Below are positions 2 through 56,477 of a stretch of DNA of 64,000 nucleotides, piece by piece. The stretch lies in assembly GCF_054482595.1 (NCBI RefSeq), contig NZ_CM137008.1; one strand, 5' to 3'. The number at the start of each line of letters is the position of its first letter. The stretch's first letter is position 1. A model generated the notes under the pieces. It was not told the origin of the DNA and did no database searches. It worked only from the letters and a program-made list of their open reading frames with translations. A program made the position numbers and the translations under genes.

Positions 2-1078
2 CGTATTAATGCGCAAAACACGGGGAGTTCCGGCGAGTATCGTGAACAGATAACAAAAGGAGCCAGGCTGGAGAACCGTTCCACTCTCTTTGCCGACAGT
101 TTCGCTTCTCACTTACTGACATATGGCGGTGAGTATTATCGTCAGGAACAACATCCGGGCGGCGCGACGACGGGCTTCCCGCAAGCAAAAATCGATTTTA
201 GCTCCGGCTGGCTACAGGATGAGATCACCTTACGCGATCTGCCGATTACCCTGCTTGGCGGAACCCGCTATGACAGTTATCGCGGTAGCAGTGACGGTTA
301 CAAAGATGTTGATGCCGACAAATGGTCATCTCGTGCGGGGATGACTATCAATCCGACTAACTGGCTGATGTTATTTGGCTCATATGCCCAGGCATTCCGC
401 GCCCCGACGATGGGCGAAATGTATAACGATTCTAAGCACTTCTCGATTGGTCGCTTCTATACCAACTATTGGGTGCCAAACCCGAACTTACGTCCGGAAA
501 CTAACGAAACTCAGGAGTACGGTTTTGGGCTGCGTTTTGATGACCTGATGTTGTCCAATGATGCTCTGGAATTTAAAGCCAGCTACTTTGATACCAAAGC
601 GAAGGATTACATCTCCACGACCGTCGATTTCGCGGCGGCGACGACTATGTCGTATAACGTCCCGAACGCCAAAATCTGGGGCTGGGATGTGATGACGAAA
701 TATACCACTGATCTGTTTAGCCTTGATGTGGCCTATAACCGTACCCGCGGCAAAGACACCGATACCGGCGAATACATCTCCAGCATTAACCCGGATACCG
801 TTACCAGCACTCTGAATATTCCGATCGCTCACAGTGGCTTCTCTGTTGGGTGGGTTGGTACGTTTGCCGATCGCTCAACACATATCAGCAGCAGTTACAG
901 CAAACAACCAGGCTATGGCGTGAATGATTTCTACGTCAGTTATCAAGGACAACAGGCGCTCAAAGGTATGACCACTACTTTGGTGTTGGGTAACGCTTTC
1001 GACAAAGAGTACTGGTCGCCACAAGGCATCCCACAGGATGGTCGTAATGGAAAAATTTTCGTGAGTTATCAATGGTAA
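2..1078 (+). CDS. chuA: TonB-dependent outer membrane heme/hemoglobin receptor, C-terminal part (5' end lies upstream of the window)
   Basis: Open frame runs from base 2 with no stop; beta-barrel C-terminus ending in an aromatic residue (…KIFVSYQW); immediately followed by chuS. Confidence 0.85.
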   Translation, partial: RINAQNTGSSGEYREQITKGARLENRSTLFADSFASHLLTYGGEYYRQEQHPGGATTGFPQAKIDFSSGWLQDEITLRDLPITLLGGTRYDSYRGSSDGYKDVDADKWSSRAGMTINPTNWLMLFGSYAQAFRAPTMGEMYNDSKHFSIGRFYTNYWVPNPNLRPETNETQEYGFGLRFDDLMLSNDALEFKASYFDTKAKDYISTTVDFAAATTMSYNVPNAKIWGWDVMTKYTTDLFSLDVAYNRTRGKDTDTGEYISSINPDTVTSTLNIPIAHSGFSVGWVGTFADRSTHISSSYSKQPGYGVNDFYVSYQGQQALKGMTTTLVLGNAFDKEYWSPQGIPQDGRNGKIFVSYQW

Positions 1079-1126
1079 TCATCTGCCCCGATTTTTCGGG
1101 GCATTTATCTGGAAGGAAGAGAGACA

Positions 1127-2155
1127 ATGAACCACTACACACGCTGGCTTGAGTTAAAAGAACAAAATCCCGGAAAGTACGCGCGTGACATCGCAGGTTT
1201 AATGAATATCAGCGAAGCAGAACTGGCATTTGCACGCGTCACGCACGATGCGTGGCGGATGCGCGGCGATATCCGTGAAATTCTGGCGGCGCTCGAAAGT
1301 GTTGGCGAGACCAAATGTATTTGCCGTAATGAATATGCAGTCCATGAGCAAGTTGGTGCGTTCACAAACCAGCATTTGAACGGACATGCCGGATTAATCC
1401 TCAATCCACGCGCGCTGGATTTACGTCTGTTTCTCAATCAATGGGCCAGTGTTTTCCACATCAAAGAAAACACGGCTCGTGGCGAACGCCAGAGTATTCA
1501 GTTCTTTGATCATCAGGGCGATGCATTACTAAAAGTTTATGCCACCGACAATACCGATATGGCGGCATGGAGTGAGCTTCTGGCACGGTTTATCACCGAT
1601 GAGAATACGCCGCTTGAGTTAAAAGCCGTTGATGCACCAGTTGTTCAAACGCGAGCCGATGCCACTGTGGTCGAGCAAGAGTGGCGGGCGATGACCGACG
1701 TTCATCAGTTTTTTACGTTGCTCAAGCGCCACAACCTGACGCGCCAACAGGCGTTCAATCTGGTGGCAGACGATTTGGCCTGCAAAGTATCCAACAGTGC
1801 GTTGGCGCAAATTCTTGAATCTGCACAGCAGGATGGTAATGAAATCATGGTGTTTGTTGGCAACCGTGGCTGCGTACAGATTTTCACCGGTGTGGTAGAA
1901 AAAGTGGTGCCAATGAAAGGTTGGCTGAATATTTTCAACCCGACGTTTACTCTTCATCTATTAGAAGAGAGCATTGCTGAAGCCTGGGTTACCCGTAAAC
2001 CGACCAGCGATGGCTACGTAACCAGTCTGGAATTGTTTGCCCATGATGGTACGCAGATAGCGCAACTTTATGGTCAACGTACAGAAGGCGAACAGGAGCA
2101 AGCGCAATGGCGTAAGCAAATTGCTTCGCTGATACTGGAAGGCGTTGCTGCATAA
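1127..2155 (+). CDS. chuS: Heme-degrading / heme oxygenase-like protein ChuS
   Basis: 342 aa ORF, the length of ChuS; N-terminus MNHYTRWLELKEQNPGKYARD; 49 nt downstream of chuA on the same strand. Confidence 0.85.
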   Translation: MNHYTRWLELKEQNPGKYARDIAGLMNISEAELAFARVTHDAWRMRGDIREILAALESVGETKCICRNEYAVHEQVGAFTNQHLNGHAGLILNPRALDLRLFLNQWASVFHIKENTARGERQSIQFFDHQGDALLKVYATDNTDMAAWSELLARFITDENTPLELKAVDAPVVQTRADATVVEQEWRAMTDVHQFFTLLKRHNLTRQQAFNLVADDLACKVSNSALAQILESAQQDGNEIMVFVGNRGCVQIFTGVVEKVVPMKGWLNIFNPTFTLHLLEESIAEAWVTRKPTSDGYVTSLELFAHDGTQIAQLYGQRTEGEQEQAQWRKQIASLILEGVAA

Positions 2156-2215
2156 CGTATAATTAACGGGAGGTCTGGCTATTTATTGCTGGGCCTCTTT
2201 ATATTGATCAATCGT

Positions 2216-2901: not shown

Positions 2902-3468
2902 TTATTTGACCAGCTCAGGTGTTACCTGACTCACCGCATTGGTGTAGTAAGGCGCACCCCAGCCCGGTTCCGGCCAGAATGCACCATAGCCGTAATCCCA
3001 CAGGTTATAGGTGGTATTAACCACTTCTCTCAAATGCCACACCTGGATGCCCTGCATATTCACTTCCAGGAAGTTATACGGGACTTTATTGATAAAGCCT
3101 GGTTGTTCACCCTGAATGGTGCCGAGGATGGTAACAAAGTGATTACGATAGTTCACTGGGTCAAGGAAGCCGCTTTGTCTGGCGAGCAGTCGGCCCTGAT
3201 AGTTGGCTTCAATATCAGGCTTCGCATAGCTATCCAACGGTAATACAGCGATTTCTAACAACGTATCCGTTTTGCCATTGATAACGTTGATAACCTTCCC
3301 ACCAAAGCGCGCTTGTTGACCAACATATAACCCCGGCTGGTTATGAACAGCAACAAAACTTTTTTGAATATCAGGTTGGTTATTGCCTTTGATATTTTGC
3401 GGAATTGAACTACATGCGGCAAGCAAAAATGAAAGGCTGAGTATGAGTGCACCTTTTGTCATGTTCAT
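2902..3468 (-). CDS. slp: Starvation-inducible outer membrane lipoprotein Slp
   Basis: 188 aa from MNMTKGALILSLSFLLAACSS (lipobox LAAC); AAGGA ribosome-binding site upstream of the ATG at 3468; the longer ORF-track start at 3633 was rejected. Confidence 0.9.
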   Translation of the reverse strand: MNMTKGALILSLSFLLAACSSIPQNIKGNNQPDIQKSFVAVHNQPGLYVGQQARFGGKVINVINGKTDTLLEIAVLPLDSYAKPDIEANYQGRLLARQSGFLDPVNYRNHFVTILGTIQGEQPGFINKVPYNFLEVNMQGIQVWHLREVVNTTYNLWDYGYGAFWPEPGWGAPYYTNAVSQVTPELVK

Positions 3469-3714: not shown

Positions 3715-4938
3715 TTATGGTATTATATTCTGATAATGATTTGATAAGCGAATTCTTTTGCCATATGGTATTTCTATTTCCACCCCATAATTTATATCTT
3801 TTTCATTAGGCAGATCTCTCTTTAAATAAAAGGGGTATGAAATCTTTTCGGGTTGAAGTGTCTCGTAATGAAATGCTATGAATTCATTTTCAGACATTGT
3901 TGCCCATTTTTGAATTTTATTGTATAGAGATGGTGTTGTAAACTCTTGAAGTTGCTTATAACATATTTTTTTGAACTCTTGCTTATATTTTGATATATCA
4001 TCAAATGAAAGATTTACTACCTTTGCCTCTAAGAAATCAATTATTCTCGAAGCAATTTCCGCTTTCGCGCGTAAAGAGTTGTTATTAATAGTTAACAATG
4101 TAGAAAACAAGCCATCGATTTGTTTGTCAAGATGCTGTTCATATTCATGTAGTTTGGGGATTGGATTTTCCTTGTGTGAAAAAATAGTGTTAAATAAATT
4201 TGCGTCAGTGAAATTTATATTAAGTAGATCTTCAAAATAAAATTTTGATAAGGTTAGGACTAGCCTGGACATATCTTGCCCTGTCATGTTGAAATCAATA
4301 AAGTCGCATCCAGCAAGGGCTTCCATCCTATTTTCATTTTCACTGTGCTCAATATACAGCTTCGCCATTTTTAGGTACAAGCTTTGAATGTCTCTTATAT
4401 CAGTTGGTAAGTCAGCTCGTTGCCCAGCAAAATTTTTATTATCAGAAGAAACGGTTTGGACACTGAATCTTTCGGGTATTCCTTCTTCTACGAGAATTTT
4501 AGTTATGATTGGATTGTTGGGTTCTGGATTAACGACAACAATGATTTGACATACAGAATCCTTATCCTTTTCGTATCTAATGTTATGAATCTGATTAAGT
4601 ATTGATTGTGTCTGTTGCGTAAGTGGTGTCGAACTTATCGTTTCAATGTTATTAATAAGACTTACAAGTTGAGCCACAACTTTTGAGTAGTCTGCATTTG
4701 TATATGTAGTGTTCGTGTGGCACTCATTAATTTGTTGGAGTTGTTGTTGGGCTAAATCAAATTGTTCAGGGTTGTATTCTTCTCCAGAGAATGTGGAATT
4801 AATGGGTTGTTGTTCTTCCCAATTATCACAAGGCCACTTCGGTGTGTCTGGTGTTTTAACATCGTCAGTATTTGTTGTGCAGTTATAAATATCGCCGTGA
4901 TATGTATTTATTATACCTGGGGTAAAGTCAATTGACAT
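3715..4938 (-). CDS. yhiS: Uncharacterised protein YhiS (intact 407 aa form)
   Basis: AT-rich 407 aa ORF in the position of yhiS between slp and arsC; Asn/Gln-rich; no recognisable catalytic motif. Confidence 0.7.
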
Positions 4939-8439: not shown

Positions 8440-8523
8440 GTGATTGATAAAGCAATCATCGTTCTTGGGGCGTTAATTGCGCTGCTGGAACTGATCCGCT
8501 TTCTGCTTCAGCTTCTGAACTGA
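8440..8523 (+). CDS. dinQ: DinQ type I toxin, small single-transmembrane peptide
   Basis: GTG-initiated 27-codon ORF encoding (M)IDKAIIVLGALIALLELIRFLLQLLN; lies between the agr repeats and gor. Confidence 0.85.
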   Translation: MIDKAIIVLGALIALLELIRFLLQLLN

Positions 8524-32297: not shown

Positions 32298-33795
32298 AGT
32301 GTTCCTCCCGATGATGTAATGGCATCACGCCTTCTTGTTGTAATTTCAACTGATACCAGCTTTTCCATTTGTGCTGATAACGCTGTAATTGATGGTATCT
32401 CGCCCGATTCGGTAACAAACGTTGGGCTATAGCGACTGGCGGCGGTGGAATATCCGGTGCGGCGGTTAATAATGCTCCGACAGAAACCGCCTCGTTAAAT
32501 GCAATTGCTTCAACCGGACGCTGTAAAATATCCGCCTTTAATTGCAGCCAAAGAGGATTATGGGTTGCCGGACCGATCACTTTTAACGCGCTGGTGCCAG
32601 GCACGTTAAAACAGGCGAAGCAGTTGGCAAATTCCATGGTTAATCCCAGTGATACGCTGGCAATTAACATGTCGATACTTAACGTATCGCCAAGCCCATA
32701 AAATAATCCACGGGTATGGCGATTTTTATAGGGCGAACCCGAACCGCGAAGATGTGGAATAAAGACGGGAATGTCATCGAGCAACCAATTCCCCGCCAGA
32801 TAATCAGCATGTCCGCGAGTAAGTGATGCGGCGATCTCCTCATCGGTTAGCCGGAACGTGTTGCGCAGCCACTCCAGCGCGAAACCGCCCACGGGCAGCG
32901 ACGCAAACAGGGTGAACTGGTTGGCAAGTGAGTAACAGCCGTTTGCCAGCTTGTCACGTTTAGCCTGTTCATCCAGCGTCGGTTGTGTATCCAGTTGCAG
33001 AATGCCTTCCGTGGTCCCCGTCGAGTTAAGGATATCGCCTGGCATCATCTGCAACGCTCGCGCACCCACCATATGGTCATGTCCGGCCAGCGTCACGCTG
33101 ACCGGTTGCGAGAACCCAAGCGTCTTGCAAAGTGACTCGCTGACCCATCCGGCGTGCTCGCCTGGCTGCACCAATGGCGCAAATGCCGTACAGGGAACGT
33201 GTAACAACGCCGCCGCTTTCGCTGACCATTCGCCTTTGCGCACGTCCAGACACAGCGTGCGGCTGGCTAAGGTGATATCCGTGCGCTGTTCGCCAGTCAG
33301 CCGCCAGAGCAGCACTTCCGGCGCATGTAGCCAGCGCAAGCTGCGGCGATTACGCAGCGGGTAATGTTCCAGCAACCAGCGCATTTTGAAGGCAGAGTAA
33401 TTACTGTGTAGTGGTAGACCGCAGATGTCATAAAGTGCCGCACTGTCTGCCTCGCTAAGCGTTGCCAGATACTCTTCACCGCGACGGTCATACCATGCCA
33501 GCATTGGCGTCAGGATCTCGCCATGCTCGTCAAGGAACACGCCTGATTCGCCAAAACTGGCAATGCTGATCCGTCTGACTGGCAGCGGCGAAGCGGCGTT
33601 CAGTTGCGCTATCGCCTGGCGGACCTCCTGCCAGAGGGCGTCGATATCGAAATCGACATCGCCCTGTGGGGAGATCTGCTTTGCCGTCACGAATTTATGC
33701 GCGCCCAACGTCGTTGCGTCCAGGCAGGAAAAGCAGGTGACTTTGCAATTGGTGGTGCCAATATCGATAACGATAGCTGCGCTGTTATCAGGCAT
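32287..33795 (-). CDS. FGGY-family carbohydrate kinase
   Basis: 502 aa; N-terminal AIVIDIGTTNCKV ATPase phosphate-1 motif; size typical of FGGY kinases. Confidence 0.7.
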   Translation of the reverse strand: MPDNSAAIVIDIGTTNCKVTCFSCLDATTLGAHKFVTAKQISPQGDVDFDIDALWQEVRQAIAQLNAASPLPVRRISIASFGESGVFLDEHGEILTPMLAWYDRRGEEYLATLSEADSAALYDICGLPLHSNYSAFKMRWLLEHYPLRNRRSLRWLHAPEVLLWRLTGEQRTDITLASRTLCLDVRKGEWSAKAAALLHVPCTAFAPLVQPGEHAGWVSESLCKTLGFSQPVSVTLAGHDHMVGARALQMMPGDILNSTGTTEGILQLDTQPTLDEQAKRDKLANGCYSLANQFTLFASLPVGGFALEWLRNTFRLTDEEIAASLTRGHADYLAGNWLLDDIPVFIPHLRGSGSPYKNRHTRGLFYGLGDTLSIDMLIASVSLGLTMEFANCFACFNVPGTSALKVIGPATHNPLWLQLKADILQRPVEAIAFNEAVSVGALLTAAPDIPPPPVAIAQRLLPNRARYHQLQRYQHKWKSWYQLKLQQEGVMPLHHREEHYVE

Positions 33796-35146
33796 AAACC
33801 GTGCTCCGCGTCATTCGGAAAATGCCATACAGTACCAGGGCGATAACCGGCACCAGACCAATGGCGATGATATTGCCGTTGAAGATTTCCAGCAGCCAGA
33901 AGCGGAACGGGTTACCGCCATCAAGGAAACTGGAAACCTGGCCGCTGGAGCCTTCGGCAAATTTGAAGTTAACGTCTTTCGCCATGCCGGTAATAAACGG
34001 TGCGATTTTAGTCGCAATCCACAGGTCGGCAATAATCACCGGGATCGCCGCCAGAACGGTGCGGAAAATATTGCCACGGCTGGCTAAAGCAATCATCGAC
34101 GCCATTACCGCCAGGTTGGCAAGGTCGCCAAGTGGCAGGACTTCATTACCTGGGAGGACAAACGCGATAAAGACCGAGATTGGCGTTAGCAGCAGGGCGG
34201 TGGAGATAATCGCCGGGTTACCTACGGCAACGGCGATATCCAGTCCGATATAGAGATCGTCACGGTCAGGGTATTTGGCATTGAGATACTTTTTAATAGC
34301 TTCAGACAGCGGTAATAAACCTTCCATCAGGATGCGTACCATGCGTGGCAGGATGAACATCACACCGCCAATGCTGATGCCAAGCAGCAATACTTTTTTG
34401 AAATCGTATCCGGCAATTACGCCGAGCAGAATGCCCAGAATGGTGCCAACCATCATCGGTTCACCGAAGATGCCAAACTTTTTCTGTACGGTTTCCGGGT
34501 CGATATGAATACGATTGAGGCCAGGGATATGGTCGATGATTTTGTCGACCAGCAGACCGACCGGGAAGAACACCACCGAAGAGAGCGTCGGCAATGAGAT
34601 CCCTTCCAGGCCAAAGTATTTTTGTACCAGTGGCGCAGACCAATCGGCGAGTTTAAGTACTACCACCGCAGCAATCGCCGCCGCCAGCAAACCAAAAAAC
34701 AGGCTGCCGGTGCTGTAATAAACCAGCGTACCAGCAAGGGCAAAATGCCAGTAGTTCCACATATCTACGTCAACGGTGCGGGTTTTATTTAACGCCAGCA
34801 TCGCCACGTTAATCAGAATGGTCAGGGGAATAACAAACGGGGCAATTGGCGAACCCCATGTAATAGCGGAAAGCGGCGGCCAGCCTAAATCTACCACCGG
34901 TAAATTAATTCCGGTGCGTTCAACCATCGCCTGGGCCGCTGGCCCGACATTGCTGGTCAGAATATCGAAAATGGCATAAATACCGACAAAACCAATGCCG
35001 ACTGTTAATGACGAACGTAAGGCTTTAGCGGGTTTTACTTTAAAACAGAGAGCAAGAATAAATAACACCAACGGCAACATTACCGTCGGGCCAAATCCCA
35101 ATATATATTGCACAATATTATAGAGGGTATGCGCGATATCGTTCAT
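33788..35146 (-). CDS. PTS EIIC component, galactitol (Gat) family
   Basis: ~452 aa polytopic membrane protein; N-terminus MNDIAHTLYNIVQYILGFGPTVMLP resembles GatC; AAGAGG ribosome-binding site before the ATG at 35146. Confidence 0.85.
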   Translation of the reverse strand: MNDIAHTLYNIVQYILGFGPTVMLPLVLFILALCFKVKPAKALRSSLTVGIGFVGIYAIFDILTSNVGPAAQAMVERTGINLPVVDLGWPPLSAITWGSPIAPFVIPLTILINVAMLALNKTRTVDVDMWNYWHFALAGTLVYYSTGSLFFGLLAAAIAAVVVLKLADWSAPLVQKYFGLEGISLPTLSSVVFFPVGLLVDKIIDHIPGLNRIHIDPETVQKKFGIFGEPMMVGTILGILLGVIAGYDFKKVLLLGISIGGVMFILPRMVRILMEGLLPLSEAIKKYLNAKYPDRDDLYIGLDIAVAVGNPAIISTALLLTPISVFIAFVLPGNEVLPLGDLANLAVMASMIALASRGNIFRTVLAAIPVIIADLWIATKIAPFITGMAKDVNFKFAEGSSGQVSSFLDGGNPFRFWLLEIFNGNIIAIGLVPVIALVLYGIFRMTRSTVYA

Positions 35147-35222
35147 AATAAACCTCTTTTTCAGGCGAGAGCGCACCTCGCGTTAGCGCCTGATGGAGTG
35201 GGTTGAAATTAATTATTATTAA

Positions 35223-35504
35223 TTACTTTTTAAGGATCGAAACAATTTGCGCCAGTACTTTCTCTTCGCCAATACCGGTAATAATAGGCAAGCCGTTAAC
35301 CACCGGGACGTCGAGTTCATAAGGCACTTTAGTCGTTGAGACTACCAGTGCTACGCCGTCAGTATTTCCAGGTAAAGAGGCAACGTTGGTTTGGGAATAA
35401 TTGACGTTAAGACCTTGCTCTTTGCAATATTCCATGACTTTTTCTGTTACCGCCGTGGATGTGGCAATACCCGTGGCGCAGACAAATAAAATGGTTTGAC
35501 TCAT
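35223..35504 (-). CDS. PTS EIIB component, galactitol-type
   Basis: 93 aa; phosphorylatable Cys in ILFVCATGIATS. Confidence 0.85.
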   Translation of the reverse strand: MSQTILFVCATGIATSTAVTEKVMEYCKEQGLNVNYSQTNVASLPGNTDGVALVVSTTKVPYELDVPVVNGLPIITGIGEEKVLAQIVSILKK

Positions 35505-35974
35505 ATTTCACCTCGTTCTTTCATTTTGTTTAAGATTACTGTGTGTATTTCTGTTGTTTCCATCGTAAGCAGGGCTTGCATAAAGGGCGTATCCTGAATC
35601 ATTTCCATAATCCAGCCCAGGGCATTTAATTGTTTGTTACTTTCGCTTAAGGCGAGCAAAAAAATCACCCTGACAGGTACGGGGTCAGGATCGCCGCCCA
35701 TATCGGCAAACTCTACCGGTTCCGGCAGGATGCCGACGGCAATTGCATTGTGCCTGACATGTTTATGGTCCGTGTGTGGAATAGCGACGCACGGTGGTTC
35801 GGTAGGCAGCCCCGTTGGGTACGTCGCCTCACGTTTCAGTACGTGATCGGCAAAGTCAGGGACCACCAGCTCGGCGGCAACCAACGGTTGCGCTAACTGA
35901 CGGATGATCTGTTCAACGCTTAACCCTGCCGGAAGTCGTTGAATATAATTTTCCTGAAACTGTATGCCTTGCAT
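35501..35974 (-). CDS. PTS EIIA component (mannitol/fructose-type fold)
   Basis: 157 aa; active-site His in AIPHTDHKHV; stop overlaps the EIIB start. Confidence 0.8.
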   Translation of the reverse strand: MQGIQFQENYIQRLPAGLSVEQIIRQLAQPLVAAELVVPDFADHVLKREATYPTGLPTEPPCVAIPHTDHKHVRHNAIAVGILPEPVEFADMGGDPDPVPVRVIFLLALSESNKQLNALGWIMEMIQDTPFMQALLTMETTEIHTVILNKMKERGEI

Positions 35975-35998
35975 TTTATTCCTCTTAAAAAAGTGTAC

Positions 35999-36754
35999 TT
36001 AACTCACTTCCCGCCGTTGCAGCACGGTGCCAAGATAATATTTATTTCCTTTTAACCAGACGTTGCCAAACTCAACGGGTAATCCTCGGGAGAAAAAGAC
36101 TAACTGCTCCAGATGCAAAACGGGTGCATCTTCACTGATATCTAAAAAATGACCGCGTTCATTACCAATTAATCGCGCGGCATAGCGACTTTCCGAGTAA
36201 CGAATTTTTCTTTGCGACAAACTTTCTATTGTTGGAAATAAATTGTGTTGATTAAAATCGATTTCCGCGATGCCGGGGCATAGCTCAATATTGATACGGT
36301 TCTCTATCAGCATCGCTTTTTCATCACCAATCGAACGTAAACGTTCAAGGTAAAGAATATCCTGACCGGGCGTTATTCTTAATTTCTCTGCTACATAACG
36401 ATTAGCCGGTTCAATCCGTGACGTAATAACTTCAGTGGTAAAATGTATTTTCTGGCTTTCCAGCGATTCCGCGAATGACAATAATCCTTCACCTAACGGA
36501 TAGGCCACGTTCTCTTTTTTGACAAATGTTCCCTTGCCCTGGACCTGAATCAACACGCCTTCTTTTACCAGTTGGGCGACCGCTTTTTTAACGGTTCCCC
36601 GACTGACTTCCAGCATATCCATAATCTGGTATTCCGAAGGGATGCGATCGTCTTCCACCAGATCTCCGGTATAAATACTTTCTCTTATCCACTCCACCAC
36701 TTGTTGATAGAGCGGTATTTGTGACGACTTACTTAATGATTTCATGGCGCGCAC
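35999..36754 (-). CDS. GntR/HutC-family transcriptional regulator (winged helix plus UTRA effector domain)
   Basis: 251 aa; N-terminal helix-turn-helix …IPSEYQIMDMLEVSRGTVKKAVAQLVKEGVL…; first gene of the PTS operon. Confidence 0.85.
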   Translation of the reverse strand: MRAMKSLSKSSQIPLYQQVVEWIRESIYTGDLVEDDRIPSEYQIMDMLEVSRGTVKKAVAQLVKEGVLIQVQGKGTFVKKENVAYPLGEGLLSFAESLESQKIHFTTEVITSRIEPANRYVAEKLRITPGQDILYLERLRSIGDEKAMLIENRINIELCPGIAEIDFNQHNLFPTIESLSQRKIRYSESRYAARLIGNERGHFLDISEDAPVLHLEQLVFFSRGLPVEFGNVWLKGNKYYLGTVLQRREVS

Positions 36755-42965: not shown

Positions 42966-44195
42966 TCAGGGCCAACGTTTAATGATGATGGATGTATTAA
43001 TGCCGCCAAAGGCAAAGTTGTTACTCTGCAAAAACTCACAATCAACCTTGCGGGCTTCATGCATGATGTAATCCAGCGCGCCACAATTCGGGTCTGGTTT
43101 ATTCAGGTTTAGCGTAGGCGCAAACCAACCTTCGCGCATCATTTGCAGACTCATCCAGGCTTCGAGCGCGCCACAGGCACCAAGCGTATGACCAAAATAA
43201 CTTTTCAGCGAGGAGAGCGGCACATTATCACCGTAAATGGTTGCTGTCGCCAGACTTTCTGCCATATCACCGCGATCGGTCGCCGTACCATGCGCTGAAA
43301 TATAGCCGATATCTTGTGCGCTTAACCCGGCGATTTTCAGCGATTGCTCCATACAATACTGCATGGTTTCGCGCTGCGGCTGGGTAATATGTGCCGCGTC
43401 GCAGTTAGTCGCAAAGCCGACGATTTCACCGTAAATGGTCGCGCCGCGCGCTTTGGCGTGCTCCAGTTCTTCGAGAATGAGCGTACCTGCGCCTTCACCA
43501 ATCACCAGCCCGTCGCGGTTTTCATCGAACGGTGAAGGTGTGGTTTTCGGCGCATCATTGTGCTGGCTGGTGGCGAAAAGCGTATCAAATACCGCTGCTT
43601 CTGAAGGACATAACTCTTCGGCACCACCAGCAACCATCACCGTTTGATAACCGTGGCGAATGGCTTCCCACGCATAACCGATTGCCTGGCTGCCGGAAGT
43701 ACAGGCGCTGGAGGTTGGGATCACCCGCCCGCGCAGGCCGAAAAAGAGGCCAGTATTAACGGCGGTGGTGTGCGGCATCATCTGCACATAGGTGGTGCCA
43801 GTGATGTTATTGGTGTGCTTTTCCGTCAGCATGGTGGCGAACTCGCTTACCGGGCCGGTACTGCCGGTCGATGAACCGTACGCAATGCCCGTTTCGCCGC
43901 TGGTTAATATCGGATCGCCAATCAACCCTGCCTGCTCTAACGCCAGCTCGCTGGCACGGGTCGACATTTGCGACACGCGGCCCATCGCACGGATACGCTT
44001 GCGGGTGTAGTGCTCCGGTAGCGTGAAATCATCAACAGGCGCGCCAAGCAGGGTGTGCAGCCCGTCGTAGACCTGCCACTCCGGCATTTTGCGCACCGCA
44101 TTTTCATACGCCAGTAAGCGTGCAGAAACGTCCTGCCAGTTTTCACCAAAGGCAGTCACGCCACCCATTCCTGTAATCACTACGCGACGTGTCAT
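42966..44195 (-). CDS. apeR: Beta-ketoacyl-ACP synthase (KAS I/II-like) of the aryl polyene-type cluster
   Basis: 409 aa; active-site Cys in SSACTSGSQ and His motifs HGTAT and GHTLGACG; letter assignment by position in the conserved apeB-apeR order. Confidence 0.75.
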   Translation of the reverse strand: MTRRVVITGMGGVTAFGENWQDVSARLLAYENAVRKMPEWQVYDGLHTLLGAPVDDFTLPEHYTRKRIRAMGRVSQMSTRASELALEQAGLIGDPILTSGETGIAYGSSTGSTGPVSEFATMLTEKHTNNITGTTYVQMMPHTTAVNTGLFFGLRGRVIPTSSACTSGSQAIGYAWEAIRHGYQTVMVAGGAEELCPSEAAVFDTLFATSQHNDAPKTTPSPFDENRDGLVIGEGAGTLILEELEHAKARGATIYGEIVGFATNCDAAHITQPQRETMQYCMEQSLKIAGLSAQDIGYISAHGTATDRGDMAESLATATIYGDNVPLSSLKSYFGHTLGACGALEAWMSLQMMREGWFAPTLNLNKPDPNCGALDYIMHEARKVDCEFLQSNNFAFGGINTSIIIKRWP

Positions 44196-44923
44196 AACAT
44201 CCCTCCGTTGATGGAAATAACCTGGCGGGTGACGTAACCCGCAATATCAGACATTAAATAACTGGCAAGCCCGGCAACTTCTTCCGCCTGGCCCATACGT
44301 TTCATGGGGATCATCGACATTGCCTCTTTCAGAGCGCTCTCTTCCATTTCGATCATCCCGGTATCAATAAGCCCTGGCGCGATGCAATTGACGGTGATTT
44401 TGCGCTTTGCGAGTTCGATAGCCAGCGCTTTTGTTGCGCCGATAATTCCGGCTTTGGCAGCGCTGTAATTCACCTGGCCGCGATTGCCCATTACGCCGGA
44501 AACCGAGGACAGCGTGATGATGCGCCCACCCTGGCGCGCGCCGATCATTGGCATAATGCACGGCTGAATGACGTTGTAGAAACTGTCGAGATTGGTGTGG
44601 ATCACCGCATCCCAGTCGTCATCGCTTAAAGCCGGAAAAGCGGCATCGCGGGCGATCCCGGCGTTACTGACCACGCCGTACCAGGCACCGTGTTGCGCGA
44701 TCTCATGCTCCAGCACTTCCCGACACTGTTCGCGGTTTGCGACGTCGAAACTGAGCAAACGCCCGTTACCCCCGTTGGCGACAATGGCATTCAGCGTTTC
44801 CTGAGCGCCTGTGGCGTCACGGTGATAGTGAACGCCAATGTTAAAGCCGTCTGCCGCCAGTTGGCAGGCGATGGCGCGACCAATGCCTTTGCTGGCACCA
44901 GTAACCAGAACTGAACGACTCAT
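44192..44923 (-). CDS. apeQ: 3-oxoacyl-ACP reductase (SDR, FabG-like)
   Basis: 243 aa; Rossmann TGASKGIGRAIA; catalytic YSAAK. Confidence 0.75.
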   Translation of the reverse strand: MSRSVLVTGASKGIGRAIACQLAADGFNIGVHYHRDATGAQETLNAIVANGGNGRLLSFDVANREQCREVLEHEIAQHGAWYGVVSNAGIARDAAFPALSDDDWDAVIHTNLDSFYNVIQPCIMPMIGARQGGRIITLSSVSGVMGNRGQVNYSAAKAGIIGATKALAIELAKRKITVNCIAPGLIDTGMIEMEESALKEAMSMIPMKRMGQAEEVAGLASYLMSDIAGYVTRQVISINGGML

Positions 44924-45387
44924 CAGGACGCTCCTTGTTGAAACAGGGTGGTAAGTTCTTCCGCGGTCGGCTGGAAGGTGTTAATGCGGCCCGTCGCCTC
45001 GCCGTCGTTGATGCTGCACTCAAAACTGCCGAAGCGATCGTCCTGCATCAGCAGTTTGACGGTAATGGTCAGCGTCTGGCCTGCGGGCAGAATGCCAGCG
45101 GCGCAAAGCAATTCACGCGCGCCCAGTATCATCCCTAACTCAATACTGTTTTTGCCCTGCTGGTGGCGATGCCAGCCAGACCAGACGCCGACGGTTTGCG
45201 CCATCAGTTCAAGGGCAAACCAGCCAGGGAGATTGCCGTCCGGGTCGAGAAACGGTGCCAGTACGCCACTGGGCGAAACCGTCACGCGGCACACCGCGCT
45301 GTCATCGCTGACGCTCACCACGTCTTCCAGCAGTAACATGGGCGCGTCGTGGGGCAGATAAGCGCCGGGGGATAAATAGTGGCTCAC
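44923..45387 (-). CDS. apeP: Hotdog-fold 3-hydroxyacyl-ACP dehydratase (FabA/FabZ-like)
   Basis: 154 aa hotdog-fold protein between the reductase and ketosynthase genes. Confidence 0.65.
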   Translation of the reverse strand: MSHYLSPGAYLPHDAPMLLLEDVVSVSDDSAVCRVTVSPSGVLAPFLDPDGNLPGWFALELMAQTVGVWSGWHRHQQGKNSIELGMILGARELLCAAGILPAGQTLTITVKLLMQDDRFGSFECSINDGEATGRINTFQPTAEELTTLFQQGAS

Positions 45388-46562
45388 GAAACCCTCCCGA
45401 GCAGAATGCTGGCGTTATTGCCGCCAAAGGCGAAGGAATTGGACAGGATCACCGGACGTGCCAGCGGCTGCGGTTTTTCGATAATGCCGCAGGGTGGCAG
45501 CGTGGGATCGCGTGGCGACAGGCTGAAATCTTGGGCGGGCAGCGGTAAATCACGCTGTAAGATCAACATACTGATTGCTGCTTCGGTAATGCCCGCCGCG
45601 CCCAGCGTGTGGCCGGTCAAATGTTTGGTGGAGCTGCACGGTACGCGTTCGCCAAACAGGGCGTTAACCACCATCGATTCAATCTGGTCGTTGAGTTGCG
45701 TGGCGGTGCCGTGCAGGTTGATATAGCCGACGTCATCTGGCGTAAGCTGCGCATCGGTCAGTGCCTGATTAATGGCGCGGATCGCCCCTTCGCCCTGCGG
45801 ATGCGGGGCCGAAATATGGTAAGCGTCACTCGATTCACCAACGCCCAGCAATGCGATGGGCTGCGGTTCGCGGGTTAATAACATCAGCCCCGCGCCTTCG
45901 CCAATGGTGATACCTGCGCGGTCACGACCGAACGGCTGACATAAAGTTGGCGAGAGCGATTCGAGGCTGTGAAAACCGTTAATCGGCATCCGGCTCAGGG
46001 TGTCTGCGCCACCCACAATGGCGGCATCGACCAGCCCCGTCTCGATAAGCCTGCGCCCGCTGATCATCGCTCTGGCGCTGGAGGAGCAGGCGGTTGAAAG
46101 GGTATAGGCCGGGCCGTCGAGCGCCAGCCAGTGGCTGAGAAAACGCGACGGATCGCCAAGTTCCTGTTGTGCGTAGTGCCATGTGGTGCTCGGCAGCCCG
46201 TGGGTGCGCAGGTTAACGTGCGTGTCGCCTTCATGCAGGCCGGAGGTGCTGGTGCCAAGTACAATCGCGATGCGCTCGCGACCATATTTCGCTATAGCGT
46301 CATCAACCTGCGGCTGGAGCTGCGCCAGCGCCGCCAGCAGGATCTGATTGTTGCGCGAGCGATGCGCAGCGAATTTTTCCGGGATAAGCGGAAGCTCGCC
46401 ATCCACGCCAGCCAGGACCGCCTGCGGATGCCCCTGCAACCAGCCTGCGCGTGGGCGCATTCCGGGGGCGACACCGCGAGCCAGGTTGGCTGCGATTTCG
46501 TCAAGATTATTTCCCAGGGCGTTGATCATGCCGACGGCGGAAATATAAATCATATCAGTCAC
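45384..46562 (-). CDS. apeO: Beta-ketoacyl-ACP synthase (catalytic ketosynthase subunit)
   Basis: 392 aa; Cys in LSTACSSS; His in HGTATQLND and GHTLGAAG. Confidence 0.75.
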   Translation of the reverse strand: MTDMIYISAVGMINALGNNLDEIAANLARGVAPGMRPRAGWLQGHPQAVLAGVDGELPLIPEKFAAHRSRNNQILLAALAQLQPQVDDAIAKYGRERIAIVLGTSTSGLHEGDTHVNLRTHGLPSTTWHYAQQELGDPSRFLSHWLALDGPAYTLSTACSSSARAMISGRRLIETGLVDAAIVGGADTLSRMPINGFHSLESLSPTLCQPFGRDRAGITIGEGAGLMLLTREPQPIALLGVGESSDAYHISAPHPQGEGAIRAINQALTDAQLTPDDVGYINLHGTATQLNDQIESMVVNALFGERVPCSSTKHLTGHTLGAAGITEAAISMLILQRDLPLPAQDFSLSPRDPTLPPCGIIEKPQPLARPVILSNSFAFGGNNASILLGRVS

Positions 46563-47139
46563 CTAAGTATTGAATGGTGATGTGGTATTTAAAGACATGC
46601 TGTTCAATGCTGATTGGCACGCGTTTGCCCTTGCGATTCAGATAGGTGATTTCCGTGACCAGCTTGCCGCTGGCGTTACGCAGCTCGCGTTTGTCACCGT
46701 TGTCGCGAAGTGTCCAGCCAGTGGGAAGTTGCGGTTGCCAGGCGCTAATCGGCCAGTGGCTGAGCATTACGTCAGCCAGCACCTGACTTGCGGGCGGCAA
46801 CTGTGGGACGACGATGGATTGCTCGGCGCGTAGCCCTTGCGCATCGTAGGTCAACAGAAACAGGCGAATGCCGACCGACGACAGCCCGGCAAGGGTGATT
46901 TTCTGGTCGTCGGCGTTAAGCATCACTAACAGCGACTGGGTTTTGCCGTTGAAGCTGCCGGTCAACAGTTGCTGGGAATTGACGGCGGGTGAAATCCCTG
47001 GTGCCGGCAGCGTGATGCGCGTGCCAGGTTGCAGCCACGCCTGCGGGCGGCCTTCCTGTTCCGGTTGCGAGTGGCTACAGCCGGTGAGGATAAGCGTAGC
47101 GGTCAGGGCGAGCGCTCGCCAGAATGTGGGTTTGATCAT
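46555..47139 (-). CDS. apeN: Lipoprotein of the aryl polyene-type cluster
   Basis: 194 aa; signal peptide with lipobox LTGC. Confidence 0.6.
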   Translation of the reverse strand: MIKPTFWRALALTATLILTGCSHSQPEQEGRPQAWLQPGTRITLPAPGISPAVNSQQLLTGSFNGKTQSLLVMLNADDQKITLAGLSSVGIRLFLLTYDAQGLRAEQSIVVPQLPPASQVLADVMLSHWPISAWQPQLPTGWTLRDNGDKRELRNASGKLVTEITYLNRKGKRVPISIEQHVFKYHITIQYLGD

Positions 47140-49454
47140 TTTTTTGTTCTCTTTTTATCGGGCATCGCCAGCGGCGAAAGCAGGAAGGCGGTGAAAATAC
47201 CGCTCACCAGCACAATGCCAAAACTGCTGATGGCCTGGGTGGCGCTGAATACCAGCATTCCCAGCGTCAGCAAGGTGGTGAGCATTGCCAGCGTGATCGC
47301 CAGTAGCGAAGTTAATGGTGTACCGCGCGGATTACTGAAAAACAGCGTGTAGTTGATGCCGATGCCAAGCACCAGCACCAGCGCCAGCAGCGAAAAGAGA
47401 TTCACCGCCTGCCCGCTCATCGCCAGCACCGCCAGACCACAACCCAGCGAAAGCACCGAAGGTACAAGGCTGATAAGCCCTTTGCGCCAGCCGAGACGGG
47501 CCACTGCGCCGCAGGCAATCACCGCCAGCGCCACCAGCAACAAGCCGGTTAAGACATAACGGTAAAGCGCGAACAACTCATCAAAGGTGCTTTTGCGATC
47601 AACCCAGGCAATGCCGCAAGGGTAATATGTGGCGATTTCCTGCATCAACGCGCTACTTTTAACCCCTTCAACCGGCACCAGTACGCCGCTTTCGCCGTTT
47701 TCCAGCGTCAGCCACAGCAGACGCCAGCCTTCACTGGCGGGGCTTGCCAGCCATTCATCAACGTTCACTGGCATGGCGTTGAGATCCGGGTTCACTGCCG
47801 TCAGCCCGGCATTTTGCAGCGCTTTTGTTACTGTCGGGGCCGCCGTTTTCAGCAGTTGTAAATCTTCCTCCTGCCGCGCAAGGGAGTTCAGCGGAATGGT
47901 GCGGTAGTTGCTGATAAGCCCCTCTTTTTTCGCATACTCAAGTGAGGCGGTATATTTCTCCAGTCGCCGCAATGTTTGCTGTGGCGAATCGCCGTAAACC
48001 ACAAACCATTTTTGATCGACGCTTTGTCCGGTCAGGGCGGTAATGGCTTTCTCCTGGGTCAGAATATGCTGCGGCAGCGCCTGTAACTGCGAGATATCGT
48101 CATCGACGCGCAGCATTGACATCCCCGCCAGCGAAAACAGCGCCAGCGCGACGGGCAGACCCAGCGACAGTTTTTTATTGCGCCGCCACGCTGCCAGCCA
48201 GCGCAGCATCAGCGCCATCGCCGGAACCGGACGCACCGGCAGGCCACGGCACAGCCACGGATGCCAGAACAGGACGGTCAGACAGGAGGCGCTCAACCCG
48301 ACGGCGGCAAAAATCGCCATCTGGCGAATGCCGGGGAAGGGGGCGAGCATCATAATCAGATATGCCGCCACGGTGGTGAGCAGCGCCAGCAGCAGGGCAT
48401 TGCGTACTTTCGCCAGGCTTTGCCACGGCGAAACGTCGTTGCCGTGCACCATCCGCTCGGTGAGATAATAGAGCGTGTAGTCAGCGGAAATGCCGATAAC
48501 GCTCATGCTCATCACCAGCGTCATCAGGTGTAATTCACCGAAAATCAATAAAGTGGCGACCGTTCCCGCCAGCGCGCCGATGCCGATGGAAATCACGCAA
48601 AGCAGCAACGGGCGCAAAGAGCGGAACACCGCCACAATCAGCAATATCACCCCCAGCAGCGTTGCCACGCCCAGGGTTGAGATATCCTGCTTCGCCTGTT
48701 GGCTGGCGTAATCGCTGTAAAACACCGTGCCGCGCGAAAGCAGCTGCGCCTGCGGGTAACGCGTTTTCAGATCCTTTTCCAGCGTATTCAGGGTCGTGAT
48801 GAGCTGGTGGGTTTGCTGCATATCAAACGACGATCCCGCCAGTTCACCGTGCAGCAGATACCAGTAGTTGCCCTGGGGATCCTGCGTCACCAGCCAGCCG
48901 TCCATCAGCCGCAAACGCTGGCCGTTTTTCGCCATCGCCAGCTGCGAGCCGCGCATTAACATCAGCGGATCGTTTTGCAGCTCCTTGCCGCTTACCCCGG
49001 AGAACGCAGAATAAAGCTGGGAGAGGATCCACTGCGCCTGCGCTTCGCCGCCGTTTTGCAGGCGCGCGCGGGTGTCGGGGTCAATCAGGCCGTTGCGGTG
49101 CTGCCAGAAAAACGCTCCCCACGCTTGCTGGCTGGCGGCATCCATTGGCCCTTTAACGTCGCCGAGCGCAGCGGATTTTTGCAGCAGCGTCAGCCACTCC
49201 TGAGCGACCCTGGGATTAGCCTCTTTACCGGGGCTGACCAGCCACACCAGTTGGCGGTCCAGACGCTGCATAAAGCCGTCATTCAGCGCTGGGGGAATAT
49301 CGCCCATAGCCTGTTTGGGTAACATAGCCAGCACGCTACTGTTCAGCCGTGATTGCGGCAGCAGGATCAGCAACGCCGCCGCCATGACCAGGCAGACTAG
49401 CCCCCATAACAGCGCGGGGCGTTTACTGGGCGGCAAAACGTTGGCGTTCGTCAT
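47136..49454 (-). CDS. apeM: MMPL/RND-superfamily exporter
   Basis: 772 aa; two transmembrane bundles each followed by a large soluble domain; translationally overlaps its neighbours. Confidence 0.7.
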   Translation of the reverse strand: MTNANVLPPSKRPALLWGLVCLVMAAALLILLPQSRLNSSVLAMLPKQAMGDIPPALNDGFMQRLDRQLVWLVSPGKEANPRVAQEWLTLLQKSAALGDVKGPMDAASQQAWGAFFWQHRNGLIDPDTRARLQNGGEAQAQWILSQLYSAFSGVSGKELQNDPLMLMRGSQLAMAKNGQRLRLMDGWLVTQDPQGNYWYLLHGELAGSSFDMQQTHQLITTLNTLEKDLKTRYPQAQLLSRGTVFYSDYASQQAKQDISTLGVATLLGVILLIVAVFRSLRPLLLCVISIGIGALAGTVATLLIFGELHLMTLVMSMSVIGISADYTLYYLTERMVHGNDVSPWQSLAKVRNALLLALLTTVAAYLIMMLAPFPGIRQMAIFAAVGLSASCLTVLFWHPWLCRGLPVRPVPAMALMLRWLAAWRRNKKLSLGLPVALALFSLAGMSMLRVDDDISQLQALPQHILTQEKAITALTGQSVDQKWFVVYGDSPQQTLRRLEKYTASLEYAKKEGLISNYRTIPLNSLARQEEDLQLLKTAAPTVTKALQNAGLTAVNPDLNAMPVNVDEWLASPASEGWRLLWLTLENGESGVLVPVEGVKSSALMQEIATYYPCGIAWVDRKSTFDELFALYRYVLTGLLLVALAVIACGAVARLGWRKGLISLVPSVLSLGCGLAVLAMSGQAVNLFSLLALVLVLGIGINYTLFFSNPRGTPLTSLLAITLAMLTTLLTLGMLVFSATQAISSFGIVLVSGIFTAFLLSPLAMPDKKRTKK

Positions 49455-50028
49455 CGGTCAGTTGCGCTGGCGTCAGTTGATGTTGGGTAAGAGCAATATC
49501 GGTGCGATCGCCCTGTTTATCATTAAGTTGAATGCTCTCCAGATAGGTTTTCCCGGCGAGATCGATGGTGTTGAAAATTTTATCCAGCGGCGTGGTGGTC
49601 GGCGTCAGGCGCAGCGTCCAGCGGCCTTCGCCTTTGTCAGCAAATTCGACGCGGAAGTTTTGTTCCAGCACTTTGCGATCGGCCTGGAACAGCGCGCGCA
49701 GCAGGTGGTTAAACTGGAACATCTGCGGGTTGTTTTCTGCCGTGATGATTTGCGGCGGCTGACCGTTGATCACCTGCACCATGCGTTTATCATCCAGCAA
49801 TAGCTGCATGGGGAACGGTGAGGTTTGATCCCACAATAACCCCTGGTCGCGGGCGATCAACATCTGACCCTGAGATCGCAGCGGCTGCGGCAGATCTTTA
49901 ATCGTCCGGGTTTGATCAAAATGGGCGCGGATCACCGGTTGTTCGGTAAAGCGTTGCTGAAGATCGTCCAGGGTCAGGGCGCTCACAAACGGGCTAATCA
50001 GCAGCGCCAGCAGCGGTAAAAATTTCAT
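49423..50028 (-). CDS. apeL: LolA-like outer membrane lipoprotein carrier protein
   Basis: 201 aa with signal peptide; LolA-like size and fold inferred from sequence. Confidence 0.65.
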   Translation of the reverse strand: MKFLPLLALLISPFVSALTLDDLQQRFTEQPVIRAHFDQTRTIKDLPQPLRSQGQMLIARDQGLLWDQTSPFPMQLLLDDKRMVQVINGQPPQIITAENNPQMFQFNHLLRALFQADRKVLEQNFRVEFADKGEGRWTLRLTPTTTPLDKIFNTIDLAGKTYLESIQLNDKQGDRTDIALTQHQLTPAQLTDDERQRFAAQ

Positions 50029-50447
50029 GGTTTGACTCCCATGCGTTCAAACAGAATATCGGGGCTGACAAAGCACAGTTCGCGACTTTGCTCGTCGACC
50101 GCGACCTGAATGGTGTATCCGGTGGTGGCGCGTTTGCCCGTTTCGGCATCGAAAATCTGATAGCCAATCCGCAGACGGTTTTCGAACTCTTCGATATGCG
50201 CACGCACGCGGATGCGTTGCTCAAAGGTGAGGGCGTGGCGATATTTCACCCGCGCATCGACCACTGGCCACAAATAACCGGACTCTTTCATCTGCCGATA
50301 GCCGTAATTGAACTGGTTGAGCAGCGCCTCGCGGGCCACTTCAAAGTAGCGAAAATAGTTACCGTGCCAGGCCACGCCCATCATATCGACGTCGTGAAAG
50401 GGAATGGTCAGCTCGACTTCAGCGGTAAATCGGGGATCGTTAAGCAC
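50025..50447 (-). CDS. apeK: Hotdog-fold acyl-ACP/CoA thioesterase (4HBT family)
   Basis: 140 aa; …IPFHDVDMMGVAWHGNYFRYFE… is typical of 4HBT thioesterases. Confidence 0.7.
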   Translation of the reverse strand: MLNDPRFTAEVELTIPFHDVDMMGVAWHGNYFRYFEVAREALLNQFNYGYRQMKESGYLWPVVDARVKYRHALTFEQRIRVRAHIEEFENRLRIGYQIFDAETGKRATTGYTIQVAVDEQSRELCFVSPDILFERMGVKP

Positions 50448-50450
50448 CCT

Positions 50451-52127
50451 TTACTCCTTGTCCTGAATTTCCGGCAGTTGCCAGAAATCGAAAAAATTAA
50501 ACCAGTCGAGGGGCGACTGGAGCGCGTAATGTTCCAGACGCGCGGCGTAGTGGTCGATAGCGTTTTGCAGCGCCTGCTGGCGTTCGCCACGCGGCAGTTG
50601 CAGCGGGTCGGCAAAGCTTTCGCAGTGAATATGCAGCTTGCCGTGCTGGCGTAGGGCGAAAATCAGATTCACTGGGCAGCGCAAAATAGAGGCGAGAATA
50701 AACGGCCCCTGTGGGAAGGGCGCAGGCTGGCCCATAAACGGACTCCAGCAGACGCGCCAGTCGCCGCCGCGTTGCGGGGTGACGGCGATGCGGTCACCGA
50801 CAATCGCCACCCATTCGCCGTTATCCAGCTTCTCTTTCAGCAGGATGGCGGTTTCTGGGCCGATATCTGTTACCGGCATCAGGTTAATGCCTGCCTGAGG
50901 AGCCATCTCCTGCATTATCTGTTTAAAGCGTTGGGCGTTTTCGCTAAACACCAGCGCGTTAATGGTTTTGTAGCCCTGAATTTTTGCCAGCGCCCGGCAC
51001 ACTTCCACATCGCCAAGATGCGAGGCCAGCAGCAATTTGCCGCGCGGATCGCGGACGTCAAGCGCCGCTTCTGCGCCTGGCGCAAACAGCACATCACGCC
51101 CCAGTTGTAGCTCGCCGCGCCAGCTGGCGATTTTGTCGAGCATGGCATTACCGAAACGTAGAAAGTGCTGATAGCTGTTGAGTTTTGCCGCCTGTGGTTG
51201 ATGCTGTCGTACACGGGCGAGCCAGTCTTGCGACGCTTTGCGCGCACGAGAAGCAGTGAGCCAGTAGACGCCCACCACCGGGTAAAGCAGCGCGCTAAAC
51301 GCCGTTCTTCCCAGCAGACGCCAGACCAGCAGCATCAGGCGCATTCCCCATAATCCTTTCACTTCACTCTGCCGCGCCCAGTGGCTGGAAGAGCGGCGCA
51401 TCAGCAGTGAAGGAATACGCGGTAACATGCCGAAAAATAGACGCGTGTGCATGAGCGAGATGCGGACGTTATCTTTCAGGGCATCAAAATGCGAAAGCCC
51501 GTCCAGTGGATAGGTGACGCGGGTCGGCACGAAATAGCTGGTGTTTCCCTGCCAGTAGAGGCGCACCATCACTTCAGTGTCGAAATCCATCCGCTTGCCG
51601 ATGGTGGCGTGTTTTGCCAGTTGCAGCGTTGGCGCAACCGGATAAACGCGAAAGCCGCACATGCTGTCTTTCAGTTGCAGGGAGAGCGTTTCGATCCATA
51701 CCCAGACGTGGGTGACCCAGCGCCCGTAAAGCCGTGAGCGGGGGATGGAGTCATCGTAAATTGGCTGGCCGGAGATCAGCGCCGCAGGGTGTTGTTCAGC
51801 GACTGCCAGCAGTTTGGGGATATCTTCAATCGCATGTTGACCGTCAGCATCCACCTGCACTGCATGGCTGAACCCTGCGTCTGCCGCTGCCTGTAAGCCA
51901 CGCATCACTGCCGCGCCTTTACCTGCGTTTTCTGCTAAGCGAATTAAGGTCACGCCAGGCTGTTCGCTAACCAGATTATCCAGTTGCTGTTGCGTGGCGG
52001 CATCGCTGCCGTCGTCCACCACAATACAGGGGAGATTAAATGGCTTAAGACGCGCCAGCACGCCCGGCATCATCGCGCCGTGGTTATAGCAGGGGATCAA
52101 CACGCAGGGAGAAAAGTTTACCGACAT
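50451..52127 (-). CDS. apeJ: Bifunctional family-2 glycosyltransferase / LpxL-like acyltransferase
   Basis: 558 aa; N-terminal GT2 (CVLIPCYNHG…VVDDGSDA), C-terminal lipid A acyltransferase-like domain. Confidence 0.7.
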   Translation of the reverse strand: MSVNFSPCVLIPCYNHGAMMPGVLARLKPFNLPCIVVDDGSDAATQQQLDNLVSEQPGVTLIRLAENAGKGAAVMRGLQAAADAGFSHAVQVDADGQHAIEDIPKLLAVAEQHPAALISGQPIYDDSIPRSRLYGRWVTHVWVWIETLSLQLKDSMCGFRVYPVAPTLQLAKHATIGKRMDFDTEVMVRLYWQGNTSYFVPTRVTYPLDGLSHFDALKDNVRISLMHTRLFFGMLPRIPSLLMRRSSSHWARQSEVKGLWGMRLMLLVWRLLGRTAFSALLYPVVGVYWLTASRARKASQDWLARVRQHQPQAAKLNSYQHFLRFGNAMLDKIASWRGELQLGRDVLFAPGAEAALDVRDPRGKLLLASHLGDVEVCRALAKIQGYKTINALVFSENAQRFKQIMQEMAPQAGINLMPVTDIGPETAILLKEKLDNGEWVAIVGDRIAVTPQRGGDWRVCWSPFMGQPAPFPQGPFILASILRCPVNLIFALRQHGKLHIHCESFADPLQLPRGERQQALQNAIDHYAARLEHYALQSPLDWFNFFDFWQLPEIQDKE

Positions 52128-52501
52128 AGGCGGATCTTCCCGCTACTGGCGGTGTGGCGGGCGTCACCGTCGTGACGCTGATAGCTAAAGCTCAGAATCT
52201 GGCGTTCTTCCTGCCAGTTAAGCGCGAGCGTGACGCGGTTTTCCGGCAGCAACGGAGACTGGAATTTTATGTTCTGAATGGAGTGAAAACGCCAGCCAGG
52301 CGCGAGCAGATTGAGCGCGTAGCTCATCGCCCAGTCGATTTGCGCAACTCCTGGGAGTAATGGTTGCACGGCAAAATGACCGCGAAACCAGAACAGATCC
52401 GCCCTGAGATGCAGAACAATTTCAAGGTGATTCGTTTGTGCCTGATGGCGCTCGATTTCATGGGGCTTCATGAAATAACTCCTGTAATTGCGCATAGACA
52501 C
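52118..52501 (-). CDS. apeI: Hotdog-fold dehydratase (FabA/FabZ-like)
   Basis: 127 aa hotdog-fold protein; second dehydratase-like gene in the cluster. Confidence 0.6.
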   Translation of the reverse strand: MSMRNYRSYFMKPHEIERHQAQTNHLEIVLHLRADLFWFRGHFAVQPLLPGVAQIDWAMSYALNLLAPGWRFHSIQNIKFQSPLLPENRVTLALNWQEERQILSFSYQRHDGDARHTASSGKIRLCR

Positions 52502-54397: not shown

Positions 54398-54401
54398 CAG
54401 A

Positions 54402-54653: not shown

Positions 54654-54664
54654 GATGGCTTTCC

Positions 54665-56461: not shown

Positions 56462-56477
56462 AATTATTAAGTGACGA

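Follow-up and report, generated by a model that had tools for sequence, protein, structure and literature searches.

What heme-uptake system ends beside dctR, a regulator gene belonging to the acid fitness island, within this stretch of DNA, and did it enter Escherichia coli at that point or disappear from strains such as K-12? The stretch, here called the window, is 64,000 nucleotides (nt) of contig NZ_CM137008.1 (NCBI RefSeq assembly GCF_054482595.1), and the genes in question occupy its positions 2–2155. These positions are almost certainly (roughly 95%) the distal end of the classical chu locus (shu in Shigella), at its usual chromosomal site in the acid fitness island, with yhiD on one side and dctR on the other. 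The locus, its place in the island, its absence from K-12, its regulation, and its use in phylotyping are already in the literature, and the arrangement, an ordinary one, has been known since 1998. The two genes and positions of note within them are these:

2..1078, plus strand: 3' part of chuA, encoding residues 303–660 of the 660-amino-acid precursor, with the stop codon
437..439, plus strand: codon CAC for ChuA His448 (precursor numbering), equal to His420 in the mature protein
1127..2155, plus strand: chuS, intact, 342 amino acids (two PF05171 domains; PDB matches)
1703–1705, plus strand: codon for His193, the axial ligand of ChuS
2136, plus strand: T where the close relative XH990 has C, changing ChuS codon 337 from CCG (Pro) to CTG (Leu)

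The first-pass annotation of this DNA held that the window opens inside a gene for a TonB-dependent heme receptor, that chuS follows, and that both converge on dctR; its coordinates and identities were right. The reading frame from position 2 is free of stops through 358 codons until the TAA at 1076–1078, and encodes the C-terminal 358 residues of ChuA, a TonB-dependent outer-membrane receptor for heme and hemoglobin; the 5' part of the gene lies upstream of the window. Although partial, this fragment scores 319.8 bits (expect value, E, 3.6e-95) against TIGR01785 (TonB-hemin), above the curated cutoff of 316.85 bits, and it also matches PF00593, the beta-barrel domain of TonB receptors. ChuS contains two HemS/ChuX domains in tandem (PF05171, E 1e-82), and its residues 1–342 match the solved ChuS structures 4CDP and 1U9T (E about 1e-229) as well as the HemS structures 2J0R and 2J0P (E about 1e-151). 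Its identity is taken from these Pfam and PDB matches because NCBIfam gives it only a sub-threshold match, to HutX. For chuA and chuS, as for dctR and slp beyond them, the matches are far beyond chance.

The residues that handle heme are in place. ShuA needs two histidines, His86 and His420, for heme extraction (PMC8977872). The second is encoded in the window (the offset of 28 in mature numbering comes from the PDB alignment of residues 29–660 to 1–632); the first lies upstream, and is found in XH990. His193, the axial heme ligand of ChuS (PMC6018153), is likewise present.

The region upstream was read in the closest genome, that of the urine isolate E. coli XH990 (NZ_CP019359.1, from 256001 onward), which differs from the 64-kb window by six single-nucleotide polymorphisms (SNPs): position 2136, the one difference in the first 19.7 kb, and positions 20613, 21626, 23938, 45120, and 62036. 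Upstream coordinates refer to the stretch fetched from that genome (L001), of which 35.7 kb were scanned. The RefSeq annotation of XH990 gives the same names to chuA, chuS, dctR, and slp, and places a full-length chuA, 660 amino acids, at L001 15096–17078; its product matches PDB entries 9DIR, 9DHE, and 3FHH (ShuA) with E = 0. Upstream of chuA is a divergent operon, chuT-chuW-chuX-chuY-chuU-hmuV (L001 9204–14413), and all eight genes of the locus are intact. From the 99.99% identity we infer that the window's own strain carries this operon too.

The 682-nt spacer between chuT and chuA contains the two best matches to the Fur consensus in the 35.7 kb. One, GATAATAATTCTCATTATC (17/19, L001 14788–14806), overlaps a promoter-like −10 element that precedes the chuA ATG by about 300 nt; the second (16/19, L001 14437–14455) adjoins chuT. 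Both Fur-box-like sites are invariant in four chu-positive lineages. The promoter-like site is suggestive only: a generic promoter scan returned 7 sites, with 7.4 expected from shuffled sequence. RfaH influences chuA expression; its ops element (GGCGGTAG) was found nowhere in the chu block, the sole matches lying in mdtE and mdtF. At L001 15067–15098, ending at the chuA start codon, is a match to the Rfam shuA thermometer (shuA_thermo, RF02597; 60.1 bits, gathering score 58). In the predicted hairpin UUUUCCU pairs with GGAGAA, setting the run of U on the Shine-Dalgarno sequence; this FourU RNA thermometer of shuA/chuA has been characterized experimentally (PMC3660397). The first-pass annotation would have given up its reading had the upstream sequence not continued into a full-length receptor gene with a Fur-regulated promoter. 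In XH990, 99.99% identical to the window, the full-length gene, a Fur-box-like site, chuTWXYU, and an ATPase gene are all present, and on the evidence of this relative the reading stands.

Two hairpins may shape the 3' ends of transcripts from this region:

1084..1103, plus strand: stem-loop in the chuA-chuS spacer, 8 bp with a 4-nt loop, followed by UUUAUCU
2168..2199, plus strand: hairpin with a 12-bp stem, GGGAGGUCUGGC / GCUGGGCCUCUU, followed by UAUAUU

The first, in the 48-nt spacer between chuA and chuS, is a terminator-like match (fold energy −16.4 kcal/mol, z −2.07) whose stem is invariant across four chu-positive lineages; its loop shows a single change. A role as partial terminator or 3'-end stabilizer, setting the ratio of chuA to chuS expression, is possible. 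The second lies in the gap between the convergent units chuA-chuS (plus strand) and slp-dctR (minus strand), whose stop codons are 60 nt apart. Read on the plus strand it folds at −20.5 kcal/mol (z −3.97), and on the minus strand at −9.3 kcal/mol (z −1.9); its sequence, within the final 50 nt of the chu block, is conserved in four chu-positive E. coli. It is likely the intrinsic terminator of chuA-chuS.

Established work on the Chu proteins supplies the mechanism. The chuA-chuS operon would be transcribed from a Fur-repressed (iron) promoter about 300 nt upstream of chuA, Fur binding there being predicted, and the FourU thermometer gates translation of chuA. ChuA takes heme off host hemoproteins and, with energy from TonB, passes it through the outer membrane; ChuT and ChuU/HmuV then bring it into the cytoplasm. 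There ChuS binds heme via His193 and degrades it aerobically, and ChuW, ChuX, and ChuY serve anaerobic heme handling. The operon would end at the hairpin 13–44 nt past chuS, shortly before the convergent dctR.

Where exactly does the locus sit? On its right the window continues as follows:

2214..2215, no strand: right border of the chu block relative to K-12; homology restarts at 2215, one base ahead of the dctR stop codon
2216..2746, minus strand: dctR (yhiF), a LuxR/GerE-type regulator of the acid fitness island (PF00196; RefSeq annotation)
2902..3468, minus strand: slp, outer-membrane lipoprotein gene, the first of the slp-dctR unit (TIGR00752, 300.9 bits; PF03843; RefSeq annotation)

On its left, past chuTWXYU and the ATPase gene in XH990, come yhiD, hdeBA, hdeD, gadE, mdtEF, and gadW. 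In K-12 the order of slp, dctR, and these genes is unchanged and their identity is 99%; the XH990 stretch examined ends before gadX and gadA. The first-pass annotation had put the locus inside the slp-dctR region. It does lie within the slp-gadA acid fitness island, at a point between dctR and yhiD and so outside the slp-dctR unit itself. That K-12 lacks the block was borne out: in strain BW25113 yhiD and dctR are only 41 nt apart. The proposed alignment to K-12 gave precise borders. By blastn, 35 bp in BW25113 correspond to 9,057 bp in XH990 (L001 9158–18214); K-12 homology stops 5 nt past the yhiD stop codon and restarts 1 nt before that of dctR. Both junctions are the same in four chu-positive E. 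coli genomes of different lineages, and the 35-bp filler (GTGGCAGCGTAGCCAGACTCACCGTAAGCCTGAAA) is identical in three chu-negative genomes. Could the filler derive from the right end of the block in inverted form, with which it has TAGCCAGAC in common? This proved unconvincing: 9 of 300 shuffles aligned at least as well when only the block ends were compared, and 152 of 300 did so over the whole block.

Beyond slp, toward arsC, is an open reading frame (ORF) of 407 codons (3715–4938, minus strand; 34% G+C) that has no Pfam or NCBIfam match. It corresponds to yhiS, a pseudogene split by the insertion sequence IS5 in K-12 and frameshifted in some other strains, whereas here it is intact. Two divergent Escherichia species do not have it, and arsC directly follows slp there.

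Comparison with known systems leaves little to distinguish this locus. The chu locus of E. coli O157:H7 and uropathogenic E. coli and the shu locus of Shigella dysenteriae have the same eight genes in the same order and orientation at the same yhiD-dctR position. Junction sequences are identical too, and the Fur-box-like sites and the FourU thermometer are the same. An O157:H7 genome is 99.4% identical over the first 3.7 kb of the window, and what sets this strain apart from the known locus is SNPs at the strain level, ChuS P337L among them. According to the citation in PMC5799925, the chu/shu position was described by Wyckoff in 1998; the same enlarged acid fitness island has been described in O157:H7 (PMC9144400; bioRxiv 10.1101/429480).

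Among 5,426 complete E. coli genomes, chuA-chuS is present in 2,236 (41%) and missing from the other 59%. Every carrier has a single chromosomal copy, never plasmid-borne. In all but three carriers (2,233 of 2,236) the pair is contiguous with dctR-slp, and nearly all of the remaining genomes have dctR-slp without it. This distribution agrees with the role of chuA as a Clermont phylotyping marker, by which groups A, B1, and C are chuA-negative and groups B2, D, E, and F are chuA-positive (PMC7026060); the Clermont amplicon, at L001 15340–15618, lies upstream of the window. The locus had been called a marker of non-K-12 lineages. It does mark lineages, but that wording is too loose, because B1, C, and other A strains also are without chuA.

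Two genomes carry shortened versions of the block. In E. coli HS-02 (NZ_CP172818.1; L009 6784–6816), chuA is cut past the equivalent of about window position 821 and joined directly to dctR; the 3' end of chuA and all of chuS are gone, and the deletion ends at the right border of the block. (This assembly has many frameshifts and is of doubtful quality.) Escherichia sp. MOD1-EC7003 (L010 5888–5990 and 6281–6404) keeps chuA-chuS-dctR and lacks chuTWXYU-hmuV. Here the deletion begins exactly at the left border of the block, and the gap is filled by a partial repeat, presumably of ERIC type, of which a full inverted copy stands in the chuA leader.

Was the block inserted, then, or lost? The first-pass annotation called it an accessory insertion, which describes the difference from K-12 well enough: set against that genome it resembles a 9-kb insertion, its distribution is patchy (41%), and the literature speaks of an O-island insertion (bioRxiv 10.1101/429480). 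On these grounds the block could be a horizontally acquired island whose insertion took place within the species, in the lines that gave rise to B2, D, E, and F, with K-12 retaining the original empty site. Outside Escherichia, moreover, the nearest relatives of chuA-chuS belong to a differently organized hemR-S-T-U-V locus, so the Escherichia locus was assembled or acquired at some point. Nevertheless, the block does not carry the features of a mobile genomic island (integrative element). It contains no annotated integrase or transposase gene and no detectable tRNA gene, and its borders have no direct or inverted repeat above chance (the longest common word, 8 nt, was reached or exceeded in 271 of 300 shuffles). 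At 50.3%, its G+C content is typical of E. coli and close to that of the whole window (51.3%); it is the neighbors dctR, slp, and the yhiS-like ORF that are AT-rich (37% G+C). The same junctions recur in every chu-positive genome examined. A scan with ChuS as query, one genome per species, followed by tblastn mapping, found three Escherichia species representatives in which chuAS adjoins dctR. Two of these records, titled E. coli E69 and SCPM-O-B-8794 (L011 and L012), have about 90% nucleotide identity to XH990 and are collinear with it across the whole chu block, from hdeD/hdeA at one end to slp at the other. The left junction sequence is common to both, and the right junction is found by exact match in SCPM-O-B-8794 only. 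Relative to XH990 the block is 91–92% identical in the two records and the flanks 85–93%, so that block and flanks have diverged equally. Any acquisition would thus be older than E. coli, and an insertion within the species is unlikely.

Divergence that tracks the flanks, together with the same junctions in two Escherichia species, argues instead for old presence and loss on the K-12 branch. The block was most probably at this site before E. coli split from its sister Escherichia species, and K-12 and other A, B1, and C strains, which are chu-negative and carry the 35-bp filler, probably lost it secondarily. The shared allele may reflect a single clean loss from an ancestrally chu-positive acid fitness island. 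The possibility of loss had already been raised, along with the observation that the co-localization of heme locus and acid fitness island had been overlooked (PMC5799925). Several points weigh against this account of the locus and its history. The polarity of loss versus gain comes from two or three outgroup genomes; lateral transfer followed by homologous recombination through the conserved flanks could mimic old presence; and E. fergusonii is without the heme locus (PMC5799925). The promoter, Fur box, thermometer, and chuTWXYUV were seen in XH990, outside the window's own sequence, and the window itself holds just the last 54% of chuA. Finally, its ChuS has the private P337L change, the residue being Pro in all four other chu-positive E. 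coli genomes compared. From the last two points, and from the deletions in HS-02 and MOD1-EC7003, one might suppose that chuA-chuS in this strain is a decaying, non-functional remnant. That is highly improbable. Both frames run open to their normal stops with the ligand histidines kept, and in XH990, six SNPs away over 64 kb, none of the eight genes is disrupted. Residue 337 is near the C-terminus, six residues from it, and its neighbors differ among lineages (EGVAA versus EVVTA), so that P337L is expected to have no functional effect. The convergent arrangement suggests another alternative: that antisense read-through or transcriptional interference couples heme uptake to the acid response. 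The 60-nt gap is short, and because the hairpin within it is weak on the dctR strand, slp-dctR transcripts could run antisense into chuS. If so, acid- or stationary-phase-induced read-through from slp-dctR, or interference of chuAS with dctR, would occur in chu-positive lineages only. But slp-dctR runs normally in K-12 without chu, convergent gene ends tens of nucleotides apart are common in E. coli, and neither the present data nor the cited papers support coupling, which makes this a distinctly long shot.

The wider relatives shed some light on how the chu locus was put together. Yersinia, Citrobacter, Enterobacter, Kluyvera, Lelliottia, Buttiauxella, Cedecea, and others have hemR-hemS-hemT-hemU-hemV (hmu) loci with the same order of receptor then hemS, encoding orthologs with 68–88% (ChuA) and 66–85% (ChuS) amino acid identity. 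There, however, hemT, hemU, and hemV follow hemS on the same strand, whereas in Escherichia dctR follows chuS and the transport genes occupy a divergent operon. Identity of ChuT, ChuU, and HmuV to the products of the hemS neighbors elsewhere reaches only about 30%, 60%, and 50%, respectively. The weak identity of the transport genes and their divergent operon indicate a mosaic: judged from these alignments, the Escherichia locus is a hemR-hemS-type pair, cut after hemS where the block meets dctR, plus a different, divergent chuTWXYUV operon.

What does this say about the strain? The source of the window is a chuA-positive E. coli, which excludes phylogroups A, B1, and C. The strain is nearly identical to the urinary isolate XH990 and has a complete system for heme-iron acquisition, a recognized fitness and virulence trait. 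As a discovery the locus has little significance; the practical value is in annotation. The orthologous junctions in other Escherichia are of modest evolutionary interest, and support the suggestion of loss made in PMC5799925.

The rest of the window contains other variable regions. Between acpT and yhhT is a biosynthetic cluster of roughly 15 kb (42966–57982, minus strand) that encodes ketoacyl-acyl carrier protein synthases, a chain-length factor, FabG/FabZ-like enzymes, two carrier proteins, and an AMP-binding enzyme, along with a glycosyltransferase, an MMPL transporter, a LolA-like protein, and a methyltransferase. Of the 5,426 complete genomes, 820 (15%) contain 80% or more of this cluster; the others match its acpT edge only. 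It may resemble O-island 138 of O157:H7, an aryl-polyene-type cluster served by AcpT. Between yhhJ and nikR (30455–36745) a hicA-hicB toxin-antitoxin pair precedes an accessory sugar cluster: class II aldolase, HPr-like protein, FGGY kinase, galactitol-type phosphotransferase system components IIC, IIB, and IIA, and a GntR regulator. At least 80% of this region occurs in 1,631 of the 5,426 genomes, and some have hicAB alone.

Two smaller features lie nearer the chu block. Between arsR and gor, two antisense small RNAs of the AgrB family (RF02891; 7850–7933 and 8081–8165, minus strand; 108 and 91.5 bits) adjoin the type I toxin gene dinQ (8440–8523, plus strand), in the known agrA/agrB-dinQ arrangement. 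Between yhiM and yhiI (21599–25093, plus strand) stand two adjacent, paralogous DUF4049 genes.

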